Of a stretch of DNA of 64,000 bases, positions 1-13,245 are shown piece by piece (positions within the stretch are counted from its first letter, which is position 1; every line of letters starts with the position of its first letter). The notes under the pieces were generated by a model, which worked only from the letters and a program-made list of their open reading frames with translations, was not told where the DNA came from and searched no databases. The DNA comes from Bryobacterales bacterium. Its GTDB lineage: Bacteria > Acidobacteriota > Terriglobia > Bryobacterales > UBA6623. Position numbers and translations under genes: made by a program. The stretch spans positions 1,344,001-1,408,000 of the forward strand of contig OY729428.2 of NCBI GenBank assembly GCA_963422375.2, given 5' to 3'.

Positions 1-2
1 CC

Positions 3-353
3 CCGGACCCGCGCGACGCCGCCGACGCCCGGCGGCGCTGGAAGGTCTCGCGCGACGGCGCGGCCGAGGCCGACGAGCGGACGCTCGAGAGCCTGCGGGA
101 CCTGCGTCGGACGCGGGCCGAGCTGCGCTCGCTGGAGGCCCGCCGCGACGAGCTCGAGCGGGCCGCGATGCAGCGCATGGGCGAGGCCTCCGAGCTGGTG
201 CATCCGGCCACCGGGGAGACGCTGGCCACCTGGCGGGCCTCCGCCCGCCGCAGCGTGGACGTGAAGGCCCTGCGCCGCGAGCGGCCCGACGTGGCCGCCG
301 AGTTCGAAGTCGCCGCGCCCGTGCGGCGGTTCCTGCTGAAGGAGACGACATGA
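3..353 (+). CDS. YqaJ-like viral recombinase/exonuclease, C-terminal part (5'-partial)
   Basis: Frame open from window start; C-terminus LATWRASARRSVDVKALRRERPDVAAEF...RRFLLK is typical of YqaJ tails; directly upstream of RecT-like gene. Confidence 0.7.
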   Translation, partial: PDPRDAADARRRWKVSRDGAAEADERTLESLRDLRRTRAELRSLEARRDELERAAMQRMGEASELVHPATGETLATWRASARRSVDVKALRRERPDVAAEFEVAAPVRRFLLKETT

Positions 354-1054
354 GCGAGAGCGCGATCGCGGCCCGGACGGCCGCCCCCGCCGACCCCCTG
401 CGGTCCGGCTTCGAGGAGGCGCAGCGCGTGGCCTCCATGCTCACCCGCAGCTCGCTGGTGCCGGCCGCCTACCGCGCCCCGCCCGAGGCCGAGGCGGGCT
501 CGCCCGCGGCGCGCCAGGCGGTGGCCAACTGCATGGTGGCTCTGGAACTGGCCCGCCGCGCGGGGCTCTCCCCGCTCGCCGTGATGCAGAACGTGGACGT
601 GATCGCCGGGCGCCCGAGCTGGCGCTCGACCTTCCTGATCGCAACCTGCAACGCCTGCGGGCGCTTCGAGCGCCTGCGCTTCCGCATGAGCGGCGAGGGC
701 CCGTCGCGGGCCTGCGTCGCCTGGACGCGCGAGCGGCCCGGCGGGGAGGAGCTCGAGGGCCCCCCGGTCTCGATGGAGATGGCCGCGGCCGAGGGCTGGG
801 TCGGCCGCCCCGGCTCCAAGTGGCGCACCATGCCCGAGCTGATGCTGCGCTACCGCGCCGCGGCCCTGTTCTCGCGGCTGTACGCGCCGGACCTGCTCAT
901 GGGCATGGCGTCCGGCGAGGAGGCGCTCGACGCCGCGCCCGCGCCGGAGCCGGCCGCCGGCGGCGGCGTGTCCGGACTCAAGCACGCCCTGGCCGCGCCC
1001 GCCGCGCCCGCCGCGGACGGCCTGTTCGCCGGGACGAAGGAGGAGACGCCGTGA
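350..1054 (+). CDS. Phage single-strand annealing protein (RecT-like)
   Basis: ANCMVALELARRAGLSPLAVMQN, GRPSW, SKWRTMPELMLRYRAAALFSRLYAPD motifs. Confidence 0.8.
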   Translation: MSESAIAARTAAPADPLRSGFEEAQRVASMLTRSSLVPAAYRAPPEAEAGSPAARQAVANCMVALELARRAGLSPLAVMQNVDVIAGRPSWRSTFLIATCNACGRFERLRFRMSGEGPSRACVAWTRERPGGEELEGPPVSMEMAAAEGWVGRPGSKWRTMPELMLRYRAAALFSRLYAPDLLMGMASGEEALDAAPAPEPAAGGGVSGLKHALAAPAAPAADGLFAGTKEETP

Positions 1055-1488
1055 AATGCAGGTCGAGAGAGCTCGGCAGCCTCGAGCCCGGCCAGGAGGT
1101 GACCCGCATCCGCGTCCGGCGCGGGCGCTTCCTGGGCGTGTCGTCGCCACCCGGGCTGGCCCTGTTCGAGCCGCTCTACCCGTCCGGCCCCGGAGAGCCG
1201 GTCGAGGTCGAGGACCGCGAGCTGTTCGCGACGCACGGCCGGCCGGCCGAGGTCCTCGCGCCCGGCGACCACGCGCTGTGGATCGAGGACCTGCACGTCG
1301 CGTGGGGCTTCTACCGGGGCGCGGCGCCGGGCGGCGCGGCCCTGTTCGAGCCCGACGGGCACGCGCCCTGGCTGCAGGCCCGTGCCGGCGACGCGGTCGA
1401 GGTCGACCCGTCCAGCCTGTTCAAGTGCCCGGACCCGGGCGACTGCCGGATCTGCAGTCCGGACAGTCCGGAGGGGCGGGCGTCATGA
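1051..1488 (+). CDS. Hypothetical phage protein with internal duplication
   Basis: GTG start overlapping the RecT stop; two similar halves (GRFLG..GLALFEP..VEVE / GFYRG..GAALFEP..VEVD); C-terminal CPDPGDCRIC. Confidence 0.55.
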   Translation: MKCRSRELGSLEPGQEVTRIRVRRGRFLGVSSPPGLALFEPLYPSGPGEPVEVEDRELFATHGRPAEVLAPGDHALWIEDLHVAWGFYRGAAPGGAALFEPDGHAPWLQARAGDAVEVDPSSLFKCPDPGDCRICSPDSPEGRAS

Positions 1489-1679
1489 AGCTCGAGCTCT
1501 GCACGCCCGGCCGCAAGGTCCTCTTCCGGCCCGGCGACGGGCCGCCCCGCGAGGTCGAGATCCTGGACGCGCTGCGGCACGAGCGCACCACCGGCCCGCG
1601 GGTGCTGGTGGCCGACGCCGGCCGCAGGCGCTGGTGTTCGGAGAAGCGCATGGAGCCGCTCCCGGGGGGCGACTCGTGA
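1485..1679 (+). CDS. Hypothetical phage protein
   Basis: ATGA overlap with previous gene and GTGA overlap with next; MKLELCTPGRKVLF... Confidence 0.55.
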   Translation: MKLELCTPGRKVLFRPGDGPPREVEILDALRHERTTGPRVLVADAGRRRWCSEKRMEPLPGGDS

Positions 1680-1912
1680 GGGGCCGCGAGCGCCGCGAGG
1701 CCGTGGCCGCGGCCGTGGCCCGCTACCGCGCCGCGGGCGTGCGCTGGAGCGACTGGGCCCGCCGGAACGGCTTCAAGTACCAGGCCGTCCGGGACGTCGT
1801 CCGCGGCCGCAGCGCCTGCTCCCACGGCGAGGCCTTCCGCGTGGCGGTGGCCATGGGCGCGATCCCGGAGCCGCCGCCCGAGCTGCGGCACCTGAGCGGG
1901 GGGCGGCCGTGA
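1676..1912 (+). CDS. Phage DNA-binding protein, BcepMu gp16-like HTH
   Basis: GVRWSDWARRNGFKYQAVRDVVRGRSACSHGEAFRVAVAMG matches the family pattern. Confidence 0.7.
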   Translation: MRGRERREAVAAAVARYRAAGVRWSDWARRNGFKYQAVRDVVRGRSACSHGEAFRVAVAMGAIPEPPPELRHLSGGRP

Positions 1913-2310
1913 GGGGCGCGAAGGGGCTGGCGCGGCAGCGCAAGCGCTACGCCCAACACAAGGCGCTCGGGGTCTGCGTGCGGTGCGCCCGGATGGTGCC
2001 GCGCCTGGGGGACCCCCTCTGCCCCGAGTGCTCGCGGAGCCAGGCGCGGATATCGCGGCGCTCGAAGCGCAAGGCGCGGGCCGCCCGGGCGTCGAGCGGG
2101 CTGTGCGCCCGATGCGGAGCCCGCCCGGCCCGGCCCGGCGTCCTCCTGTGCGGCGAGTGCAAGGACAGGGAGACCGCGGAGAACAAGCGCCGCCGCGAGG
2201 CCCGGGCCGCGCAAGGCCTCTGCATCCAGTGCGGCGCGACCGCCGTCGCCGGCCGCTATCGCATGTGCCTGGCCTGCCGGCTAGCCGCGTCGGAGCGCAA
2301 GAGACGATGA
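1909..2310 (+). CDS. Basic protein with three repeated CxxC...CxxC zinc-finger units
   Basis: GVCVRC..LCPEC; GLCARC..LCGEC; GLCIQC..MCLAC. Confidence 0.7.
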   Translation: MRGAKGLARQRKRYAQHKALGVCVRCARMVPRLGDPLCPECSRSQARISRRSKRKARAARASSGLCARCGARPARPGVLLCGECKDRETAENKRRREARAAQGLCIQCGATAVAGRYRMCLACRLAASERKRR

Positions 2311-2981
2311 CCCTGCGCGCGCGCGGCGAGGGACCGCGGACCGCGGCCTGGACGGTGCGGTACCTGTCGCTCCAGTCCCTGCCCGGGGAAATCCAGGTCC
2401 ACGAGGGCGAGCTGGGCGCCTACTTCGCCGCGAGCGCGGAAGAGGCCCTCGACGCCGCCGAGGCCGACGTCGCGGCGGCCAGCCCGCGCGACCGGCGCTG
2501 GTTCGAGCGCGACGGCTGCGAGTGCGAGTGGTGCTGCACCTGCGGGTGCGCCTGCGGGTGCGCCGCCTGCGAAGCCTGCGACGCGAGCGCGGACTGCGAG
2601 TGCGTCTGCGAGTGCGGCAGGCATCGCGACGCGAGCGGCGAGCCGGTGGAGCTGCCGCGGGTGGACCTGTCCTGCTTCGGCGCCGGCGCCCTCGCCGGCG
2701 AGCGCCCGGGCGTCGCCGCCGGCTCGCGGCACGAGCTGAGGTGCATGCGGGGCGGCGACGGGATGCCGGTCCGGCCCGGCCGGAGCGTGACGCTCCTGCC
2801 GCTCGCGGCCCCGGCGCGCCTGCCGCTGTCGACCCCGCCCGGACCCGGCGAGACGGGCGTGACGGAGGAGCTCGGATCGCCGGGCTCGGGCGCCGCCCTG
2901 GTGCGCTGGGAGCGCTCCGGCGACCTCTGGTGCCCGGTCGCGGATCTCGCGGTCACCCGCAGCCGGAGGGCGCGGGCGTGA
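2307..2981 (+). CDS. Hypothetical phage protein with metallothionein-like Cys cluster
   Basis: ATGA overlap; CECEWCCTCGCACGCAACEACDASADCECVCEC. Confidence 0.6.
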   Translation: MTLRARGEGPRTAAWTVRYLSLQSLPGEIQVHEGELGAYFAASAEEALDAAEADVAAASPRDRRWFERDGCECEWCCTCGCACGCAACEACDASADCECVCECGRHRDASGEPVELPRVDLSCFGAGALAGERPGVAAGSRHELRCMRGGDGMPVRPGRSVTLLPLAAPARLPLSTPPGPGETGVTEELGSPGSGAALVRWERSGDLWCPVADLAVTRSRRARA

Positions 2982-4204
2982 CCGTGCGCGTGGACCGGAT
3001 CCGCGTCGGGCCGCGGCACCGCCGCGAGCTGGGCGACATCGAGGAGCTGGCGCGCTCGATCCGCGCGGTAGGCCTGCTGCAGCCGGTCGGCGTCCGGCGC
3101 TCCGGAGAGGGCTTCGATCTCTGCTTCGGCGCCCGGCGCCTGGAGGCCTGCCGCCGGCTGGGCCGCGAGGAGATCGAGGCCGTGCTGGTGGACAGCGAGC
3201 CGGCGCCCGCCGAGCGGGCCGAGTGGGCCGAGTGGGAAGAGAACGAGATCCGCAAGGACCTCGCCCCGAGCGAGCGCGTCGCCCTCGCGGAGGCCCTGCG
3301 GTCGGAAAATATTCCGATCGCCGCCGTCCCGCGCCCGGACTCGGAAAATATTCCGAAGCCGACCGTCGCCGAGGCCGCGAAGAAGGCGGGCTTCGGCAAC
3401 GAACGCACCTTCCGCGACGCGCGCAAGGTCGGCGCGCGCGGCACCGAGTCGCTGCGCCAGGCGATGGACGCGGGCCGGATCAGCGTGTCCGCGGCCGCCC
3501 GGCTGGCCGATCTCCCGCCCGCGCGGCAGGACGAGCTGGTCGCCGGCGAGCCCCGCGAGCGGCGCGAGGCCGTGCGCTCGCTGCGGGCGGGCCGGGGCGA
3601 CCCGGAAAATATTCCGAGTCCCGGCGATCCGGAAAATATTCCGAGTCCGGGCATCCGCCCGCCGACGGCCTCCGAGCGGATCGGCTGGCTCGTGCGGGCG
3701 CTGGAGGCATTCGAGCGCGAAGCCCGCGACGCCGGCGTGACCGCGGCCCACCTGCGGGCGGCGGACGTCGCGCGGCGCGAGACGCTGCGACGGGCCCTGG
3801 CCTCGGCCTCCGGCCTGCTGGACCGGCTGGCCCGCGAGGCGAGCCCGGGCGCGGGGGCGCCTGCCTGGGAAGCCTACGCCGCGGCCTACCTCGGGCGCTA
3901 CGGCGTCCCGCCGGTGCGCAACGCGAAGGTCAACGCGCAGATGGCCCGGTTCGCGAGCCGCGTGCCGGCCGGGGACGCGCCGGCCGTGGCCGCCTACTAC
4001 CTCGGCCATCCCAACGCCTGGTACGCCCGCGCCGGCCACGCGGTCGGTCAGCTCCTGGCCGACGCCGAGAAGCTGCACATGGAATGGCGGCGGGGGCGCC
4101 CCGTGACGGCCGCGGGGGCGGCCCGCGCCGAGCGCTCCGCGGCCAACGTGGAGAGCTCGCTGGGGGCTCTCGAGCTGCTGCGGGAGAGCGGGCATGTCCG
4201 GTAG
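2978..4204 (+). CDS. ParB N-terminal domain fused to phage replication initiator-like C-terminus
   Basis: RRELGDIEELARSIRAVGLLQPV, GARRLEACRRLG, EENEIRKDLAPSE (ParB); WEAYAAAYLGRYGVPPVRNAKVN...LLADAEKLHMEW (phage replication protein C-terminus). Confidence 0.75.
   Translation: MTVRVDRIRVGPRHRRELGDIEELARSIRAVGLLQPVGVRRSGEGFDLCFGARRLEACRRLGREEIEAVLVDSEPAPAERAEWAEWEENEIRKDLAPSERVALAEALRSENIPIAAVPRPDSENIPKPTVAEAAKKAGFGNERTFRDARKVGARGTESLRQAMDAGRISVSAAARLADLPPARQDELVAGEPRERREAVRSLRAGRGDPENIPSPGDPENIPSPGIRPPTASERIGWLVRALEAFEREARDAGVTAAHLRAADVARRETLRRALASASGLLDRLAREASPGAGAPAWEAYAAAYLGRYGVPPVRNAKVNAQMARFASRVPAGDAPAVAAYYLGHPNAWYARAGHAVGQLLADAEKLHMEWRRGRPVTAAGAARAERSAANVESSLGALELLRESGHVR
3302..3644. 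repeat. Four copies of CGGAAAATATTCCGA (putative iterons)
   Basis: Identical 15-mers at 3303, 3342, 3603 and 3630; near-palindromic and AT-rich in a GC-rich gene. Confidence 0.8.
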
Positions 4205-4727
4205 CGACGCGCGCGCGATGCTCGGGGCGATCACCCTGACGGCCGAGCTGTGCGGGGCGGACCTGAGCGAGCGGGCCCGGGCGGCCATGGTCCGGCGCCT
4301 GGAGCCGTTCGGCCGCGCGGCCGTGCTGGCCGCCCTCGACCGCGTGCAGGCGGAGCATCACGGGAGGCTGACCCTGGCGGCCGTGATCGACCGCATCGAG
4401 GACGGGCGGCCGGGCCCGGAGGAGGCCTGGGCCGTCTGCTGGCGCGACGAGAGCGAGTCGGCCTGGCTGACCGCCGAGCAGATCCGGGCGGCCCGGGCGG
4501 CCGCCCCCCTGGTGCGGGCCGGCGACCCGGTCGGGGCCCGCATGGCCTTCCTCGAGGTCTACCGGCGCGAGACGCGGATCGCCCGCTCGGCCGGCCGCCC
4601 CGCGGCATGGCGTCTCGTCCCGGGCTCCGATCCGGAGCGCCTGCGAGAGGCCGTCCGCCTCGGCGCGGCGCGAGGCCTCGCGAGGGCGCTGCCGCCGGCC
4701 CCGAACGGGGCGGATGTGGCCGCATGA
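4194..4727 (+). CDS. Conserved phage protein downstream of replication initiator (possible helicase loader)
   Basis: GRLTLAAVIDRIEDGRPGPEEAWA...GDPVGARMAFLEVY; occupies the position of a P-type gene. Confidence 0.6.
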   Translation: MSGSDARAMLGAITLTAELCGADLSERARAAMVRRLEPFGRAAVLAALDRVQAEHHGRLTLAAVIDRIEDGRPGPEEAWAVCWRDESESAWLTAEQIRAARAAAPLVRAGDPVGARMAFLEVYRRETRIARSAGRPAAWRLVPGSDPERLREAVRLGAARGLARALPPAPNGADVAA

Positions 4728-5992
4728 GGGCGAATCAGCTACAATCCCTGGCCGAGGTCGGGGACTTGGCGCGGCGCCGGTTGCAGAAGCAGGGGGAGCT
4801 CGTGAAATCCGGCGGCTTTTGGAAGGGCCGCTGGCGCGAGGACGTGCGTCTGGAGGGCGGCGGGATCGCCCGCAAGTGGTCGCCGCGAGTGATGGTCGCC
4901 CCGGCCGAGGGCCGCTTCGGCGTCACCAAGCGCGAGGCCCAGCGCATGTTCTGGGACACCTACCTGTCGCGGCTCGACGACAACAATCTCGTGCCGCGCT
5001 CGATGGAGACGTTCGGGCGCTTCGCGGCGGGGCACTACGACCGAGAGCGCCTCGCGCGCCTGCGGCGGCCCGCATCGCCGCGCCTCTGCCTCGCCCGGCT
5101 CCCGGAATGGTTCGCGCGGCTGCGCCTGCGGGACGTGACCAAGGCGGACGTGCAGCGGGCCTGCGACGAGCTGCTCGCGGCGGGCCTCGCCCCGGGCACC
5201 GCGCGCAACACGCGCGTGGCCGTCCACGCCCTGTTCGAGTTCGCGGCCGAGGAGGGCTTCCACGCCGGTCGCAACCCCGCCCGGGGGGTGCGAATCCCGC
5301 AGGGCGGGACCCGCGAGACGCGGGCCCTCTCCTACCCCGAGGCGCGGGCCCTGCTGGACGGCCTGCAGCATCGCGCCGCCAAGGACATCACGGCGTGCGC
5401 CCTGATGACGGGATGCCGCGTCTCCGAGATCGCCGGCCTCGAGTGGGGCCGCGTCAACCTCGGCAGCGCGTGGAAGTCGGACGGGGGGACGATCGTGCCG
5501 CCGCGCTCGGCGGCCGTCGTCGAGCAGTGGTACCGGGGCGCCGCCGGGCCCCTCAAGACCGCTTCGAGCCAGCGGGTCGTGCCCCTGCCCGGACCGCTGG
5601 CCGCGATCCTCGGCAAGCGCCGCGACGAGGCTCCCGCGGGCTCCGCCTACGTCTTCGAGGGCCCGCGGGGCCGGCCCTGGGAGGTCGGCTCGCTGGCGCG
5701 CTGCTACCTCAAGCCCGCGGCGGCGGCCGCCGGCGTCGGACGGGTCCACTGGCACGCCTTGCGGCACACCCACGCCACGTGGCTCTTCCAGATGGGCATG
5801 TCCGAGCCCGACCGCAAGGCGCAGCTGGGGCATGCCGCGCCCGGAGTGCACGCCGGGTACCTGCACTTGCGCCTCGAGGACCGCAGGGAGCCGCTGGAGA
5901 GGCTGGCCGCCGCGCTGTTCGGGCCGGATCCGGAACCCGAGCCCGAGCCGACCGCCGCGGATCTCGCGGCCCTGGAAGGGTACTTCGCGTGA
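4724..5992 (+). CDS. Tyrosine recombinase / phage integrase
   Basis: TGCRVSEIAGL, LKT, WHALRHTHATWL, LGH, HAGY catalytic motifs; N-terminal arm-binding-like region. Confidence 0.92.
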   Translation: MRANQLQSLAEVGDLARRRLQKQGELVKSGGFWKGRWREDVRLEGGGIARKWSPRVMVAPAEGRFGVTKREAQRMFWDTYLSRLDDNNLVPRSMETFGRFAAGHYDRERLARLRRPASPRLCLARLPEWFARLRLRDVTKADVQRACDELLAAGLAPGTARNTRVAVHALFEFAAEEGFHAGRNPARGVRIPQGGTRETRALSYPEARALLDGLQHRAAKDITACALMTGCRVSEIAGLEWGRVNLGSAWKSDGGTIVPPRSAAVVEQWYRGAAGPLKTASSQRVVPLPGPLAAILGKRRDEAPAGSAYVFEGPRGRPWEVGSLARCYLKPAAAAAGVGRVHWHALRHTHATWLFQMGMSEPDRKAQLGHAAPGVHAGYLHLRLEDRREPLERLAAALFGPDPEPEPEPTAADLAALEGYFA

Positions 5993-6154
5993 CGATTCTG
6001 TCCACGTTCGGTCCACGGAGGGGCGGCGAGGCCGGCGCGGAGTGGGCTCGATACCGCCTCGGATTGCTGGCCGTAATCCGTTGCGGAAACGGTAGTTGCG
6101 CTTGTTGCGCTTGTCCCTGCCCGCCTGCGCGGGCCGGGACCCTCCGGACGCGGC

Positions 6155-7105
6155 ATGCTGTTCCACTGCAACGGCTGGTGTTTTCCGTGGGCCGTTGCCG
6201 CGGTCGGGGCGACGAACGTCTGCTTGCGGAAGGTGGTGCCCTCGGAGGTCTACCGGCTGATCCGCGAGCGCGGCGTCACGCACATGTGCTGCGCTCCGAC
6301 CGTGCTGACCGCGCTGTATTCGAGCCCGGACGCGGACGGGCAGGACCTGAGCGGTCTCACGATCGCGACGGCGGGCGCGCCGCCCGCTCCGCAGGTCATT
6401 CGCAGAATGGAGGGCATGGGCGCCCAGGTGTGCCACGTCTACGGTCTCACCGAGACCTACGGACCGTACGCGGTGTGCGCCGACCAGCCCGGCTGGGACA
6501 GTCTCGATGCCGGGCGGCGGGCCTTGGTCAAGGCCCGTCAGGGCGTGCCGTTCGGCGTCGCGGGAGACGGCCTGCGCGTGGTCGACGAGTGCATGCGCGA
6601 GGTGCCTCGCGACGGGGCGACGATGGGCGAGGTCGTCATGCGCGGCAACATGGTCATGACCGGATACTTCAACGAGCCGCAAGCCACGGTCAACGCGTTC
6701 AGGGGCGGCTGGTTCCACTCCGGCGACCTAGCCGTACGGCACCCCGACGGCTACGTCGAGCTCCGGGACCGCGCCAAGGACATCATCGTTTCCGGCGGGG
6801 AGAACATTTCGAGCCAAGAGGTCGAGAAGGTCGTCATGGAGCATCCTGCCGTGCTCGAGGTGTGCGTCGTCGGAGTCCCGGACGAGAAATGGGGGGAGGT
6901 GCCGAAGGCGTTCGTGGCCCCCCGCGCGGGAGCGGAGGCTTCCGAAGCCGAGATCATCCGCTTCACGCGCGAGCGCCTGTCGCACTTCAAGTGCCCCAAG
7001 CATGTCGAGTTCGGGGATCTGCCCAAGACGGCGACGGGGAAGATCCAGAAGTTCGTCTTGCGCGAGCGCGAATGGAAGGGACGCGAGAAGCGCATTCTCG
7101 GCTGA
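6155..7105 (+). pseudogene. Acyl-CoA synthetase (AMP-binding), 3' half only, interrupted by prophage
   Basis: Begins at (P)MFHCNGW motif; contains YGLTET, WFHSGD, DRAKDIIVSGGENI, LPKTATGKIQK; lacks the N-terminal YTSGTTG region. Confidence 0.85.
6157..6175. other. Putative att core site (prophage/host junction)
   Basis: GCTGTT-CCACTGC-AACGGC: imperfect inverted repeat around a 7-bp spacer, exactly where host gene homology begins. Confidence 0.55.
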
Positions 7106-11343: not shown

Positions 11344-13245
11344 CTAGAGCACCCGGCGCAGGTCGCCGTCCCGCAGGGTGACCTTCTGCCGGTCGAAGTG
11401 CTCCAGCAGGGGAATCGCGTATTTCCGGCTGACGCCCGCGAGCGTCTTGAACTCTCCGATGTTGATGCGCCTTCCGCGCAGGGTCGCTAGGCGCTCCCGC
11501 AGCGCCCCGATCGCGCTGCCGTGGAAGACGAGTTCGCGGCTTACGCGAACCAGCACGCCCTCGCGGAGCAGTGCCGCCAGGACGCGCTGCGCCCGCGGCG
11601 CGTCGACCGGAAGCGTCGGCAGGAACTCCTTGAGGGCCGGCACCTGCAGGCCGGCCCGCTCGAACGCTCCCACCAGGCGGTCTCGCGCCTCCTGCTCGTC
11701 CGCCTGCATCCGGATCCTGTGGCGCGCGGCGCGGACGAGCTCGCCGTCCATCGCGACCTGGCCCGCCTCGGCTAGGCGCTTCAGCAGGTCCTCCGCGAAG
11801 AAGTCCGGGGCGTCGCCCAGCTCGCCGCTGCGGATCGCCTCGACCGGAGCGCCTGCCAGCAGGGGATTGGCCTCGTGGAAGCTGGCGAGGGCGTGCATGA
11901 CGCGTTCCTCGGCCCGGCGCGTGCTCGAACGGGCGCAGATCCAGAGGGGTCTCTCGCGGAGTACGCGCACGGAGGGAGTCGCCCGCGCCGTGGCGAGCCA
12001 GGCCGGCTCGAGACGGCCCGTCATCGCGGTCAGCTCGCTTCCCGCGATGCCGTACGGGCGGCCTTCGCACAGCAGCGCCAGCGCTTCGCACCAGTCGCGC
12101 TTCAAAAGCACCTCCAGGAGCGGCCGCCAGGCGTCGTCGCGCCTGTGTCTCGGAGCCTGCGGCCGCAGCACCGTGCCCCCGGCGATGGTAATCAGCGGCG
12201 AGAACTGGCGCAGGATGAACGGCTCCCCGCAAACCGCGACGAGCGGATTGTGGAGACGCAGCTGCAGGAAGGTCTCGCTGCCCGGTTCCACGACGGACTG
12301 GCGACCGCTCGCGCCTAGGACGTAGGCGCGGCCCACCGTCTCCGAGGTCGCGAGGTGAACGTGGACCGGCGCGCCGTGCTTGAGGGGCTTGGCCGTGCCG
12401 AGCAGCTCGACGCGGGCGTCGAACTGCAGCGTGGGGGCCAGCTGGCCGGGCGTCGCGATGCACATGCCGCGGGCCAGATCGGACTTCGAGATCCCGCCGA
12501 CGTTCACCGCGGTGCGCTGGCCCGCCACCGCCTCGGGCACCTGCCGTCCGTGCACCTCGACGCTGCGGACGCGGGCCCGGCGGCCCTCCGGCAGGATCTC
12601 CACCGGATCCTCGACTCGCAGGCGGCCGCTGGTCAGCGTGCCGGTCACGACCGTCCCGAATCCCTTCATCGTGAAGACGCGGTCCACCGGCAGCCGGAGG
12701 AGGCCGTCGGCGCCGCGCGGCTCGACCGCCCGCGCGGCTCTGGCCAAGGCCCGGCGCAGTTCGGGCAGCCCGGCACCCGTGACGCTGCTTACCGGGACCG
12801 CCGGCGCCGTCGCGAGGAACGACCCGGCGACGTACTCATCGACCTCGAGCTTGACCAGCTCCAGGATTTCCTCGTCGACCAGGTCGGACTTGGTCAGGAC
12901 GATGACGCCGTGGCGGATGCCGAGCAGGCGGCAGATCTCGAAGTGCTCGCGCGTCTGCGGCATGACCGACTCGTCGGCCGCGATGACCAGCAGCACCACG
13001 TCGATCCCGCCCACGCCGGCCAGCATGTTCTTGACGAAGCGCTCGTGGCCGGGCACGTCGACGAATCCGAGCCGCAGGCCCGGCTCGAGTTCCAGGCTGG
13101 CGAACCCCAGATCGATGGTGATGCCGCGGCGCTTTTCCTCCTCCCAGCGGTCGGTGTCCGTGCCGGTAAGAGCGCGAACGAGCGATGTCTTGCCGTGATC
13201 GATGTGGCCGCTCGTGCCGATGACGACGTTGCGCCGGGACGCCAT
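11344..13245 (-). CDS. selB: Selenocysteine-specific translation elongation factor
   Basis: [30 protein letters not shown]-terminal [13 protein letters not shown] winged helix. Confidence 0.97.

Follow-up and report, generated by a model that had tools for sequence, protein, structure and literature searches.

Three Near-Identical Prophage Copies in Three Unrelated Genes of a Bryobacterales Genome, One of Them a Split Acyl-CoA Synthetase Gene: Likely Retargeting by Exchange of a 7-bp Overlap

Results

Prophage End and Split Gene in the Window

The window, which is the whole stretch of 64,000 nucleotides analysed here (C2:1344001-1408000), comes from a Bryobacterales genome of 6.0 Mb (G000) that was deposited as the three contigs C1, C2 and C3. 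It begins inside a prophage whose early and integration end gives way, at the attachment core, to the 3' half of an acyl-CoA synthetase gene (Table 1). On the same contig, the remainder of the prophage lies upstream, from C2:1307804 onward; the true left end of the copy that enters the window starts at C3:479716. Among 21 prophage proteins submitted to a comparison with the PHROGs families, 17 were assigned to a family, and genes for TerS, TerL, portal, protease, major capsid, head-tail adaptor, tape measure, tail fibre, repressor and integrase were found in this order. Judged by this gene content, the element is a complete HK97-type tailed temperate phage and not a cryptic one.

The start codon region of the integrase gene overlaps the stop codon of the preceding gene. 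By alignment, the residues R232, K278, H344, R347, H370 and Y379, which we take to be the catalytic set, are present in the integrases of all three prophage copies described below. A BcepMu gp16-family protein encoded at positions 1676-1912 is the sole small DNA-binding candidate noted for a possible excisionase. The prophage also carries a tRNA-Arg(CCT) gene (L001:12990-13062), despite its integration in protein genes. A cargo region at C2:1337500-1342480 and its counterparts on C1 and C3 contain a gene for a HATPase-domain protein (744 aa) and methyltransferase-like frames, and the C2 copy of this region is without about 1.2 kb present in the other two. In the host part of the window, the frame at 11344-13245 on the minus strand presumably codes for a SelB-like selenocysteine elongation factor.

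Table 1. Coordinates of the prophage end, attachment features and split gene in the window, and of the lesions in the target gene of site 3 (window positions unless a contig or locus is named).
Feature	Position	Strand	Evidence or remark
Prophage right (early/integration) end, HK97-type siphovirus of ~42 kb	1..6175	+	PHROGs/sequence comparison
RecT-like annealing protein	350..1054	+	phrog_561, E 4.5e-62
ParB-like protein	2981..4204	+	PF02195; PHROGs
Tyrosine integrase, 422 aa	4724..5992	+	Pfam PF00589; phrog_1
Two direct repeats, putative arm-type sites	5999..6017	+	TGTCCACG at 5999-6006, GGTCCACG at 6010-6017
Phage-side ATG in arm sequence common to the three copies	6155..6157	+	in frame with the host half at this site alone
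attR core: half-site GCTGTT, overlap CCACTGC (6163-6169), half-site AACGGC	6157..6175	.	identical 19-mer at attL, C3:479716-479734
3' half of PRK08162-type acyl-CoA synthetase gene, codons 222-536 of the predicted whole	6158..7105	+	Pfam/NCBI family match; 5' half at C3:479054-479728
Lesions of the site 3 target gene: transposase-bearing insert; frameshift	L004:8281-9741; ~8170-7077		

Attachment Core, Arm Repeats and Phage-Side ATG

A first-pass annotation of the window had read GCTGTT-N7-AACGGC as the core site of a tyrosine integrase and the GTCCACG repeats behind the integrase gene as arm sites, and both readings gained support. The 19-bp core has exactly one further occurrence in the 6.0-Mb genome, the attL listed in Table 1, where the 5' half of the same gene ends and the left arm of the phage begins directly after. 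This left arm contains four further putative arm repeats, 146-187 bp from the core. When searched for across the genome, the spaced-pair patterns of the repeats matched only the six ends of the three copies, plus one looser match at an unrelated place; the repeat also adjoins the integrase genes of tRNA-targeting relatives. From the sequence alone, with cut positions that are predicted, the site has a lambda-type layout of inverted core half-sites, a 7-bp overlap and arm repeats on both sides. A terminator-like match at 6157-6175 was rejected as merely the core palindrome.

The phage-side ATG lies 163 nt past the integrase stop codon, with GGA eight bases upstream of it. The frame that it opens has 316, 115 and 22 codons in the three copies and runs antisense to the target gene in two of them.

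The Interrupted Acyl-CoA Synthetase Gene

The earlier view that a prophage sits inside an acyl-CoA synthetase gene was borne out, with the same 19-bp core at both gene halves; the att target is protein-coding, as had also been claimed. The 5' half and core expected at the other end of the prophage were found once, although on contig C3 and not on the window's own contig C2. The 5' half comprises the first 225 codons and reads through into the phage to a stop after 245 aa. The 316-aa frame of the window starts with M-L-F-H-C-N-G-W and spans positions 214-384 of the 384 of the Pfam AMP-binding model plus AMP-binding_C. Against the PRK08162 model (NF006020, 545 positions), which is the best family for both halves, the two pieces match positions 12-236 (241 bits) and 233-537 (451 bits), each alone staying below the full-length cut-off of 677 bits. 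The motif YTSGTTGFPKG, presumably the P-loop of the synthetase, stays in the 5' half and is absent from the 316-aa piece. The annotated start of the host gene at (WTLP)MFHCNGW, about 160 nt past the integrase, holds for the distance (163 nt) but not for the residue: this genome and 14/14 relatives have WTLPLFHCNGW. Because the host motif has Leu and not Met, the ATG is of phage origin and stands in the place of a Pro codon.

With the phage taken out from one overlap to the other, the gene has an open frame of 536 aa without a stop, so the suggestion that the 3' half is intact and that excision would restore the frame is supported as well. In 14/14 relatives, the best of 35 other genomes with a gene match, nothing interrupts the gene, and the two halves follow each other with gap 0. 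A match to the gene is present in 22/24 relatives of the genus, the closest paralogue in this genome has at most 39% identity, and the phage carries no replacement copy. We also computed dN/dS for both halves, as had been proposed. The values against the 14 relatives were 0.17-0.29 and 0.08-0.17 for the two halves (relatives' medians 0.157 and 0.097), and seven private changes fell on otherwise invariant columns (relatives' range 0-18). Because dS to the relatives is 0.8-1.3, dN/dS is blind to the time since insertion; as estimated from these alignments, it shows only old selection.

Three Copies and a Mis-Joined Assembly

As assembled, the genome contains three copies of the prophage: one within C2, one split between the end and the start of C3, and one between the start and the end of C1. 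Their integrases are 95% identical. Over the left 33 kb, nearly all differences between the copies lie in tandem-repeat stretches, and over the right 9 kb the copies differ by 2-8%, including the repressor and Cro alleles, among which the C1 allele is clearly distinct. This clear difference of the C1-copy repressor and Cro from the other two suggests a second immunity type. A CRISPR array of 29 repeats on C1 (378281-380331) has six spacers matching the triple prophage, two exactly and four with 1-2 mismatches, and another six matching a fourth, related prophage.

In the assembly as deposited, every contig pairs an attL with the attR of a different site. Paired by their overlaps, the ends define site 1 with CCACTGC (attL on C3, attR in the window), site 2 with GGAGAGG (attL on C2, attR on C1) and site 3 with CGGATCG (attL on C1, attR on C3). 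After this pairing, the overlaps of attL and attR are equal in 3/3 copies. All three overlaps lie within GTT-N7-AAC; any two of them agree in 2 of 7 bases, and at none of the positions do all three agree. Re-pairing the host flanks in the same way gave one host circle of 5.87 Mb, assuming that the ends of C2 join. Its replichores measure 3.05 and 2.81 Mb and its net G-C is -2.8 k; the skew reaches its minimum at C1:1620139, about 1 kb away from the single dnaA gene (C1:1621038-1621523). As assembled, every contig is skewed in one direction. The copies are about 99.9% identical over >20 kb, which is enough to defeat an assembler. Judged from the overlaps and the skew, the three contigs are one chromosome mis-joined inside the prophage copies, the deposited gene order across these junctions is wrong, and what stands on C2 as one prophage is a chimera that combines parts of two copies. 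Throughout the genome there are also very many repeats of 0.7-1.9 kb with 90-98% identity, probably IS families.

An alternative would keep the assembly as deposited, with three replicons formed by recombination between the copies and the gene halves permanently apart. The halves do lie on different contigs, and both C1 and C3 begin and end inside prophage copies. The balanced single circle obtained by re-pairing, its skew minimum next to dnaA, the one-way skew of each assembled contig and the near-identity of the copies all stand against it, and we consider it highly improbable.

Junctions in Public Sequencing Runs

Contigs from the public runs X1 and X2, which belong to two studies, contained all three right junctions each, and one contig of each run spans the window junction unbroken. 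The left junction of the synthetase gene was found in X3 and X4, together with two further contigs whose sequence passes into the phage there, and a 151-base contig of X7, from a third study, crosses the left junction with no difference; X6 gave pieces only. One of the public runs may be the source sample. A 190-base contig of X6 (window 6157-6346) starts exactly with the first core base, which the coexistence of attB and attR would predict; its depth is about 5, and its start may be a coverage end. Joins at attB or attP, which the first-pass annotation had proposed to look for, were absent from the loose ends shown from the public-run contigs (37 + 5 ends lay outside this set); because rare forms are lost from contigs, rare excision may have gone unseen. 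Where loose ends at the core run on into coding sequence, they are synthetase genes of other organisms.

Target Genes and Origin of the Overlaps at the Other Two Sites

At site 2 the phage lies in an amidohydrolase gene, antiparallel to it. This gene has a match in 28/30 genomes of the genus, and 19/19 loci in relatives read uninterrupted. The target of site 3, which we take to be a TonB-dependent-receptor-like gene from its motifs, is likewise antiparallel to the phage and is broken upstream of it by a transposase-bearing insert, presumably IS1595-like, and a frameshift (Table 1). The site 2 core (C2:1307804-1307822) and the inverted site 1 core (6157-6175) match in 17/19 bases, and yet the orientation of the phage to the gene is opposite at site 2; shared codon context may explain part of the match.

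The overlaps of sites 1 and 2 are the commonest form among the relatives (10/14 and 6/19, respectively). Both sites carry the host's own overlap on both ends. At sites 1 and 2, the host sequence also agrees with one phage half-site at 4 bases beyond the overlap, more than a clean exchange of 7 bp would account for; shared codon context may play a part here too.

At site 3 the picture is the reverse. The codons within the overlap read Asp-Pro at both prophage ends, as opposed to Asn plus Met, Leu, Val, Ile or Phe in 24/24 homologs (five orthologs at 77-82% identity and 19 more distant ones, including one in this genome). The best ortholog matches 160/182 flanking bases, which gives a binomial value of 0.0055 for the overlap; with private changes at 24/349 aligned residues of the gene, the chance that two fall on the overlap codons is about 0.5%. 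At the nucleotide level, only 2/7 overlap bases differ from all five orthologs, a score reached by 181/2017 windows in the gene, and because the gene is a pseudogene, drift is possible. On balance, these comparisons suggest that the overlap was probably written by the phage into the host gene, and site 3 argues for some tolerance of overlap mismatch. The sequence GTT-CGGATCG-AAC at C1:771998-772010 was considered as an earlier site of the site 3 copy and rejected, since 43% of the core-like sites share their 7-mer with another such site.

The genome contains 730 GTT-N7-AAC sites, 390 of which reach 9 of 12 or more and so equal or exceed the weakest of the sites in use; targets are thus plentiful. 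Good cores were absent from 60/60 tRNA genes of the genome, two of which have the minimal GTT-N7-AAC alone. We identified no primary attB with a fixed overlap in the genome, where three sites have three overlaps.

Relatives of the Integrase

The integrase of the fourth prophage mentioned above (C2:2405685-2406827) is 47% identical to that of the window and sits in a tRNA-Pro(CGG) gene with a duplicated 3' half. This prophage (C2:2405646-2465337, about 60 kb; L007-L009) encodes a protein of 5185 aa and shares with the triple prophage a 2.5-kb module of 95.6% identity, including the tRNA-Arg(CCT) gene. The integrase of genome G047 is 49% identical, lies in tRNA-Arg(CCG) and has the same arm repeat; in G047 this integrase gene is interrupted near its start by IS-like sequence (L036:9700-9999). 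Among 400 genomes searched across the order, 26 others had a match, giving 27 loci. A tRNA gene or tRNA 3' half adjoins 23 of these and is not evident at four (11 called by ARAGORN, 19 by a T-loop pattern, 21 in the union of both, and two more from the printed sequence). The loci with the same arm repeat have TTGC-N7-GCAA around the anticodon loop.

In a quick, midpoint-rooted tree of 44 rows (30 own loci, 13 fetched proteins and the window's integrase), the three integrases form one clade, and its sister consists of two tRNA-targeting integrases with a support of 100. The tree and the attachment sites point to, but do not prove, a lineage that moved from tRNA to coding targets. A search of 30 other genomes of the genus did not find the clade, and the three sites, all of them in a single genome, thus lack an independent replicate. 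No close relative of the integrase was found in the viral contigs searched or in JGI metagenome contigs, where the best match had 26-34% identity; GTDB genomes yielded one relative at 49%, and the protein collection four clusters at E<=1e-40 among the top 7993 candidates. In two proteins with 39% identity (P0004 and P0009), SLNVAE replaces GCRISE and the first catalytic Arg is missing from the alignment. A literature search returned nothing on this phage, host or target. Mageeney et al. 2020 reportedly contains tables of promiscuous clades, which could include relatives.

Discussion

The best fit to these observations is a retargeted integrase with attP adaptation, by analogy to the staphylococcal Sa3int phages. 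The phage is complete and temperate and is present in near-identical form in three unrelated genes; it likely changes its target by exchange of the 7-bp overlap, and its integrase likely recognises only the flanking GC(T/C)GTT and AAC(A/G)GC. Such an integrase would bind the half-sites and arms and would not read the overlap. Its ancestor may have been an integrase of the tRNA anticodon loop whose core specificity shifted. Occasional integration at a core-like site would then occur with a mismatched overlap, and excision from there would leave attP with the host overlap, or else the host gene with that of the phage. Re-integration at the now-matched site would finally produce a prophage with identical ends.

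A bolder reading, which we regard as unlikely although worth stating, is that the phage behaves like a transposon-like hopper derived from tRNA-specific phages. It would recombine across fully mismatched 7-bp overlaps, have hundreds of GTT-N7-AAC sites at its disposal and rewrite up to seven host bases, as at site 3; if this were true, a mutagenic, freely retargetable phage integrase would have been caught just after leaving the tRNA genes. In a further explanation, overlap homology is not needed at all, as in Tn916 or CTnDOT, and the two heteroduplex bubbles formed at each integration are repaired to the host sequence (sites 1 and 2) or to that of the phage (site 3), and the element amounts to a packaged transposon leaving 7-bp scars. 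The lack of any overlap base common to the three sites and the foreign look of the site 3 overlap to the host gene on both sides fit this explanation. The Tn916 integrase needs no coupling-sequence homology (PMC5812530) and IntDOT tolerates 5 bp of heterology (PMC2817482). We nevertheless think it improbable. Replication alone would leave a mismatch between attL and attR, whose overlaps are identical in 3/3 copies; independent repair should give three matched pairs only 1 time in 8; and the nearest relatives retain conventional tRNA duplications.

The Listeria comK prophage and the skin element in sigK of Bacillus are each dedicated to one gene and excise on a signal. The first-pass annotation had proposed a switch of this kind for the synthetase gene, with excision of the prophage restoring the enzyme; the prophage would have to excise on a signal without killing the cell. 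As in these systems, the phage lies inside a conserved coding gene, without replacement sequence, and the halves are intact and would rejoin in frame; the gene is also widely kept in the genus and has no close paralogue. Disruption without replacement is often taken as regulated gene integrity (PMC10111431). Unlike the comK and skin elements, however, the same phage occupies three unrelated targets, two of them antiparallel to it and one a dead gene broken by an IS and a frameshift, and its head, tail and repressor modules are complete. The attR junction is crossed by contigs of two runs and the attL junction by those of three, and a recent insertion equally predicts intact halves. A regulated switch is, therefore, very unlikely. 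We predict that the synthetase is inactive in the lysogen and restorable by precise excision, as a by-product of integration.

Least probable of all is the purposeful expression of a half-protein from the phage ATG, which would either act by itself or form a split enzyme with the 245-aa N-terminal piece. In its favour, the ATG opens 316 aa in frame behind a GGA, and the 5' half stays open. On the other side, the same ATG is phage-borne in 3/3 copies and antisense to the target in two, the P-loop is left in the 5' half, no sigma-70-like promoter was found within 5700-6400 (a weak test in a high-GC host), and the integrase gene ends the early operon and should be repressed in a lysogen.

Insertion into coding genes is common among prophages, accounting for 39.9% of the mapped proviruses in PMC13626063, and because attP adaptation is known from staphylococcal phages too, a split gene is nothing remarkable on its own. 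The case also carries two warnings: intact halves on either side of a prophage do not in themselves make a regulated switch, and several copies of one prophage can lead to chimeras even in an assembly that is almost finished.

With lambda and mv4 (PMC5605937; bioRxiv 10.1101/2023.11.06.565760), the phage shares inverted cores, a 7-bp overlap, two-sided arms and off-site insertions that disrupt genes. More than 300 secondary sites are given for lambda when forced (PMC5605937), and for the mv4 integrase the overlap content is described as free when the partners match (10.1101/2023.11.06.565760). In lambda, off-site integration is described as rare and seen when attB is missing, whereas here each copy was found at a different site. 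The Tn916 and CTnDOT integrases (PMC5812530, PMC2817482) also use many unrelated targets with an overlap that varies by site. These are conjugative elements with non-identical att overlaps, and IntDOT keeps a GC dinucleotide; the element described here, in contrast, is a tailed phage with overlaps identical at both ends in 3/3 copies.

Closest is the Sa3int phage phi13 of S. aureus. In PMC8649754, experiments are reported in which attP took up the bases of an alternative attB and then preferred it, and lambda and P2 are named as precedents. Like the phage described here, phi13 has a tyrosine integrase and uses alternative sites, coding or non-coding, in either orientation, with attL = attR in adapted prophages (same source). 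The corresponding features here are alternative sites in coding genes in both orientations, with the ends at sites 1 and 2 matched to the host overlap. For phi13, the same text gives a known primary site in hlb, a TGG kept in 20/22 sites, and attL unlike attR in most field prophages. The present case differs: the genome showed no primary site, the overlaps have no base in common, a single chromosome holds three matched copies, and in one host gene the overlap appears to be that of the phage. What is new is thus the form that attP adaptation would take here, with three matched sites side by side in the same chromosome plus a probable scar on the host side at site 3, which would be the reciprocal of attP adaptation.

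The tRNA-targeting integrases of the order (G000 C2:2405685-2406827; G047/G146; L052-L076) have 27-49% identity to those of the window clade and, like them, a 7-base overlap between inverted half-sites; the arm repeat TGTCCAC is common to the clade and to L051, L066, L068 and L070. They insert in the anticodon loop between TTGC-N7-GCAA flanks and duplicate the tRNA 3' half, whereas the window clade inserts between TGTT-N7-AAC flanks in coding genes without repairing its target. Integrases of 95% identity with three unrelated, matched overlaps, beside tRNA-loop relatives with the same arm repeat, are an unusual snapshot, and the set is suited to asking which residues shift core specificity and how much mismatch a phage integrase tolerates.
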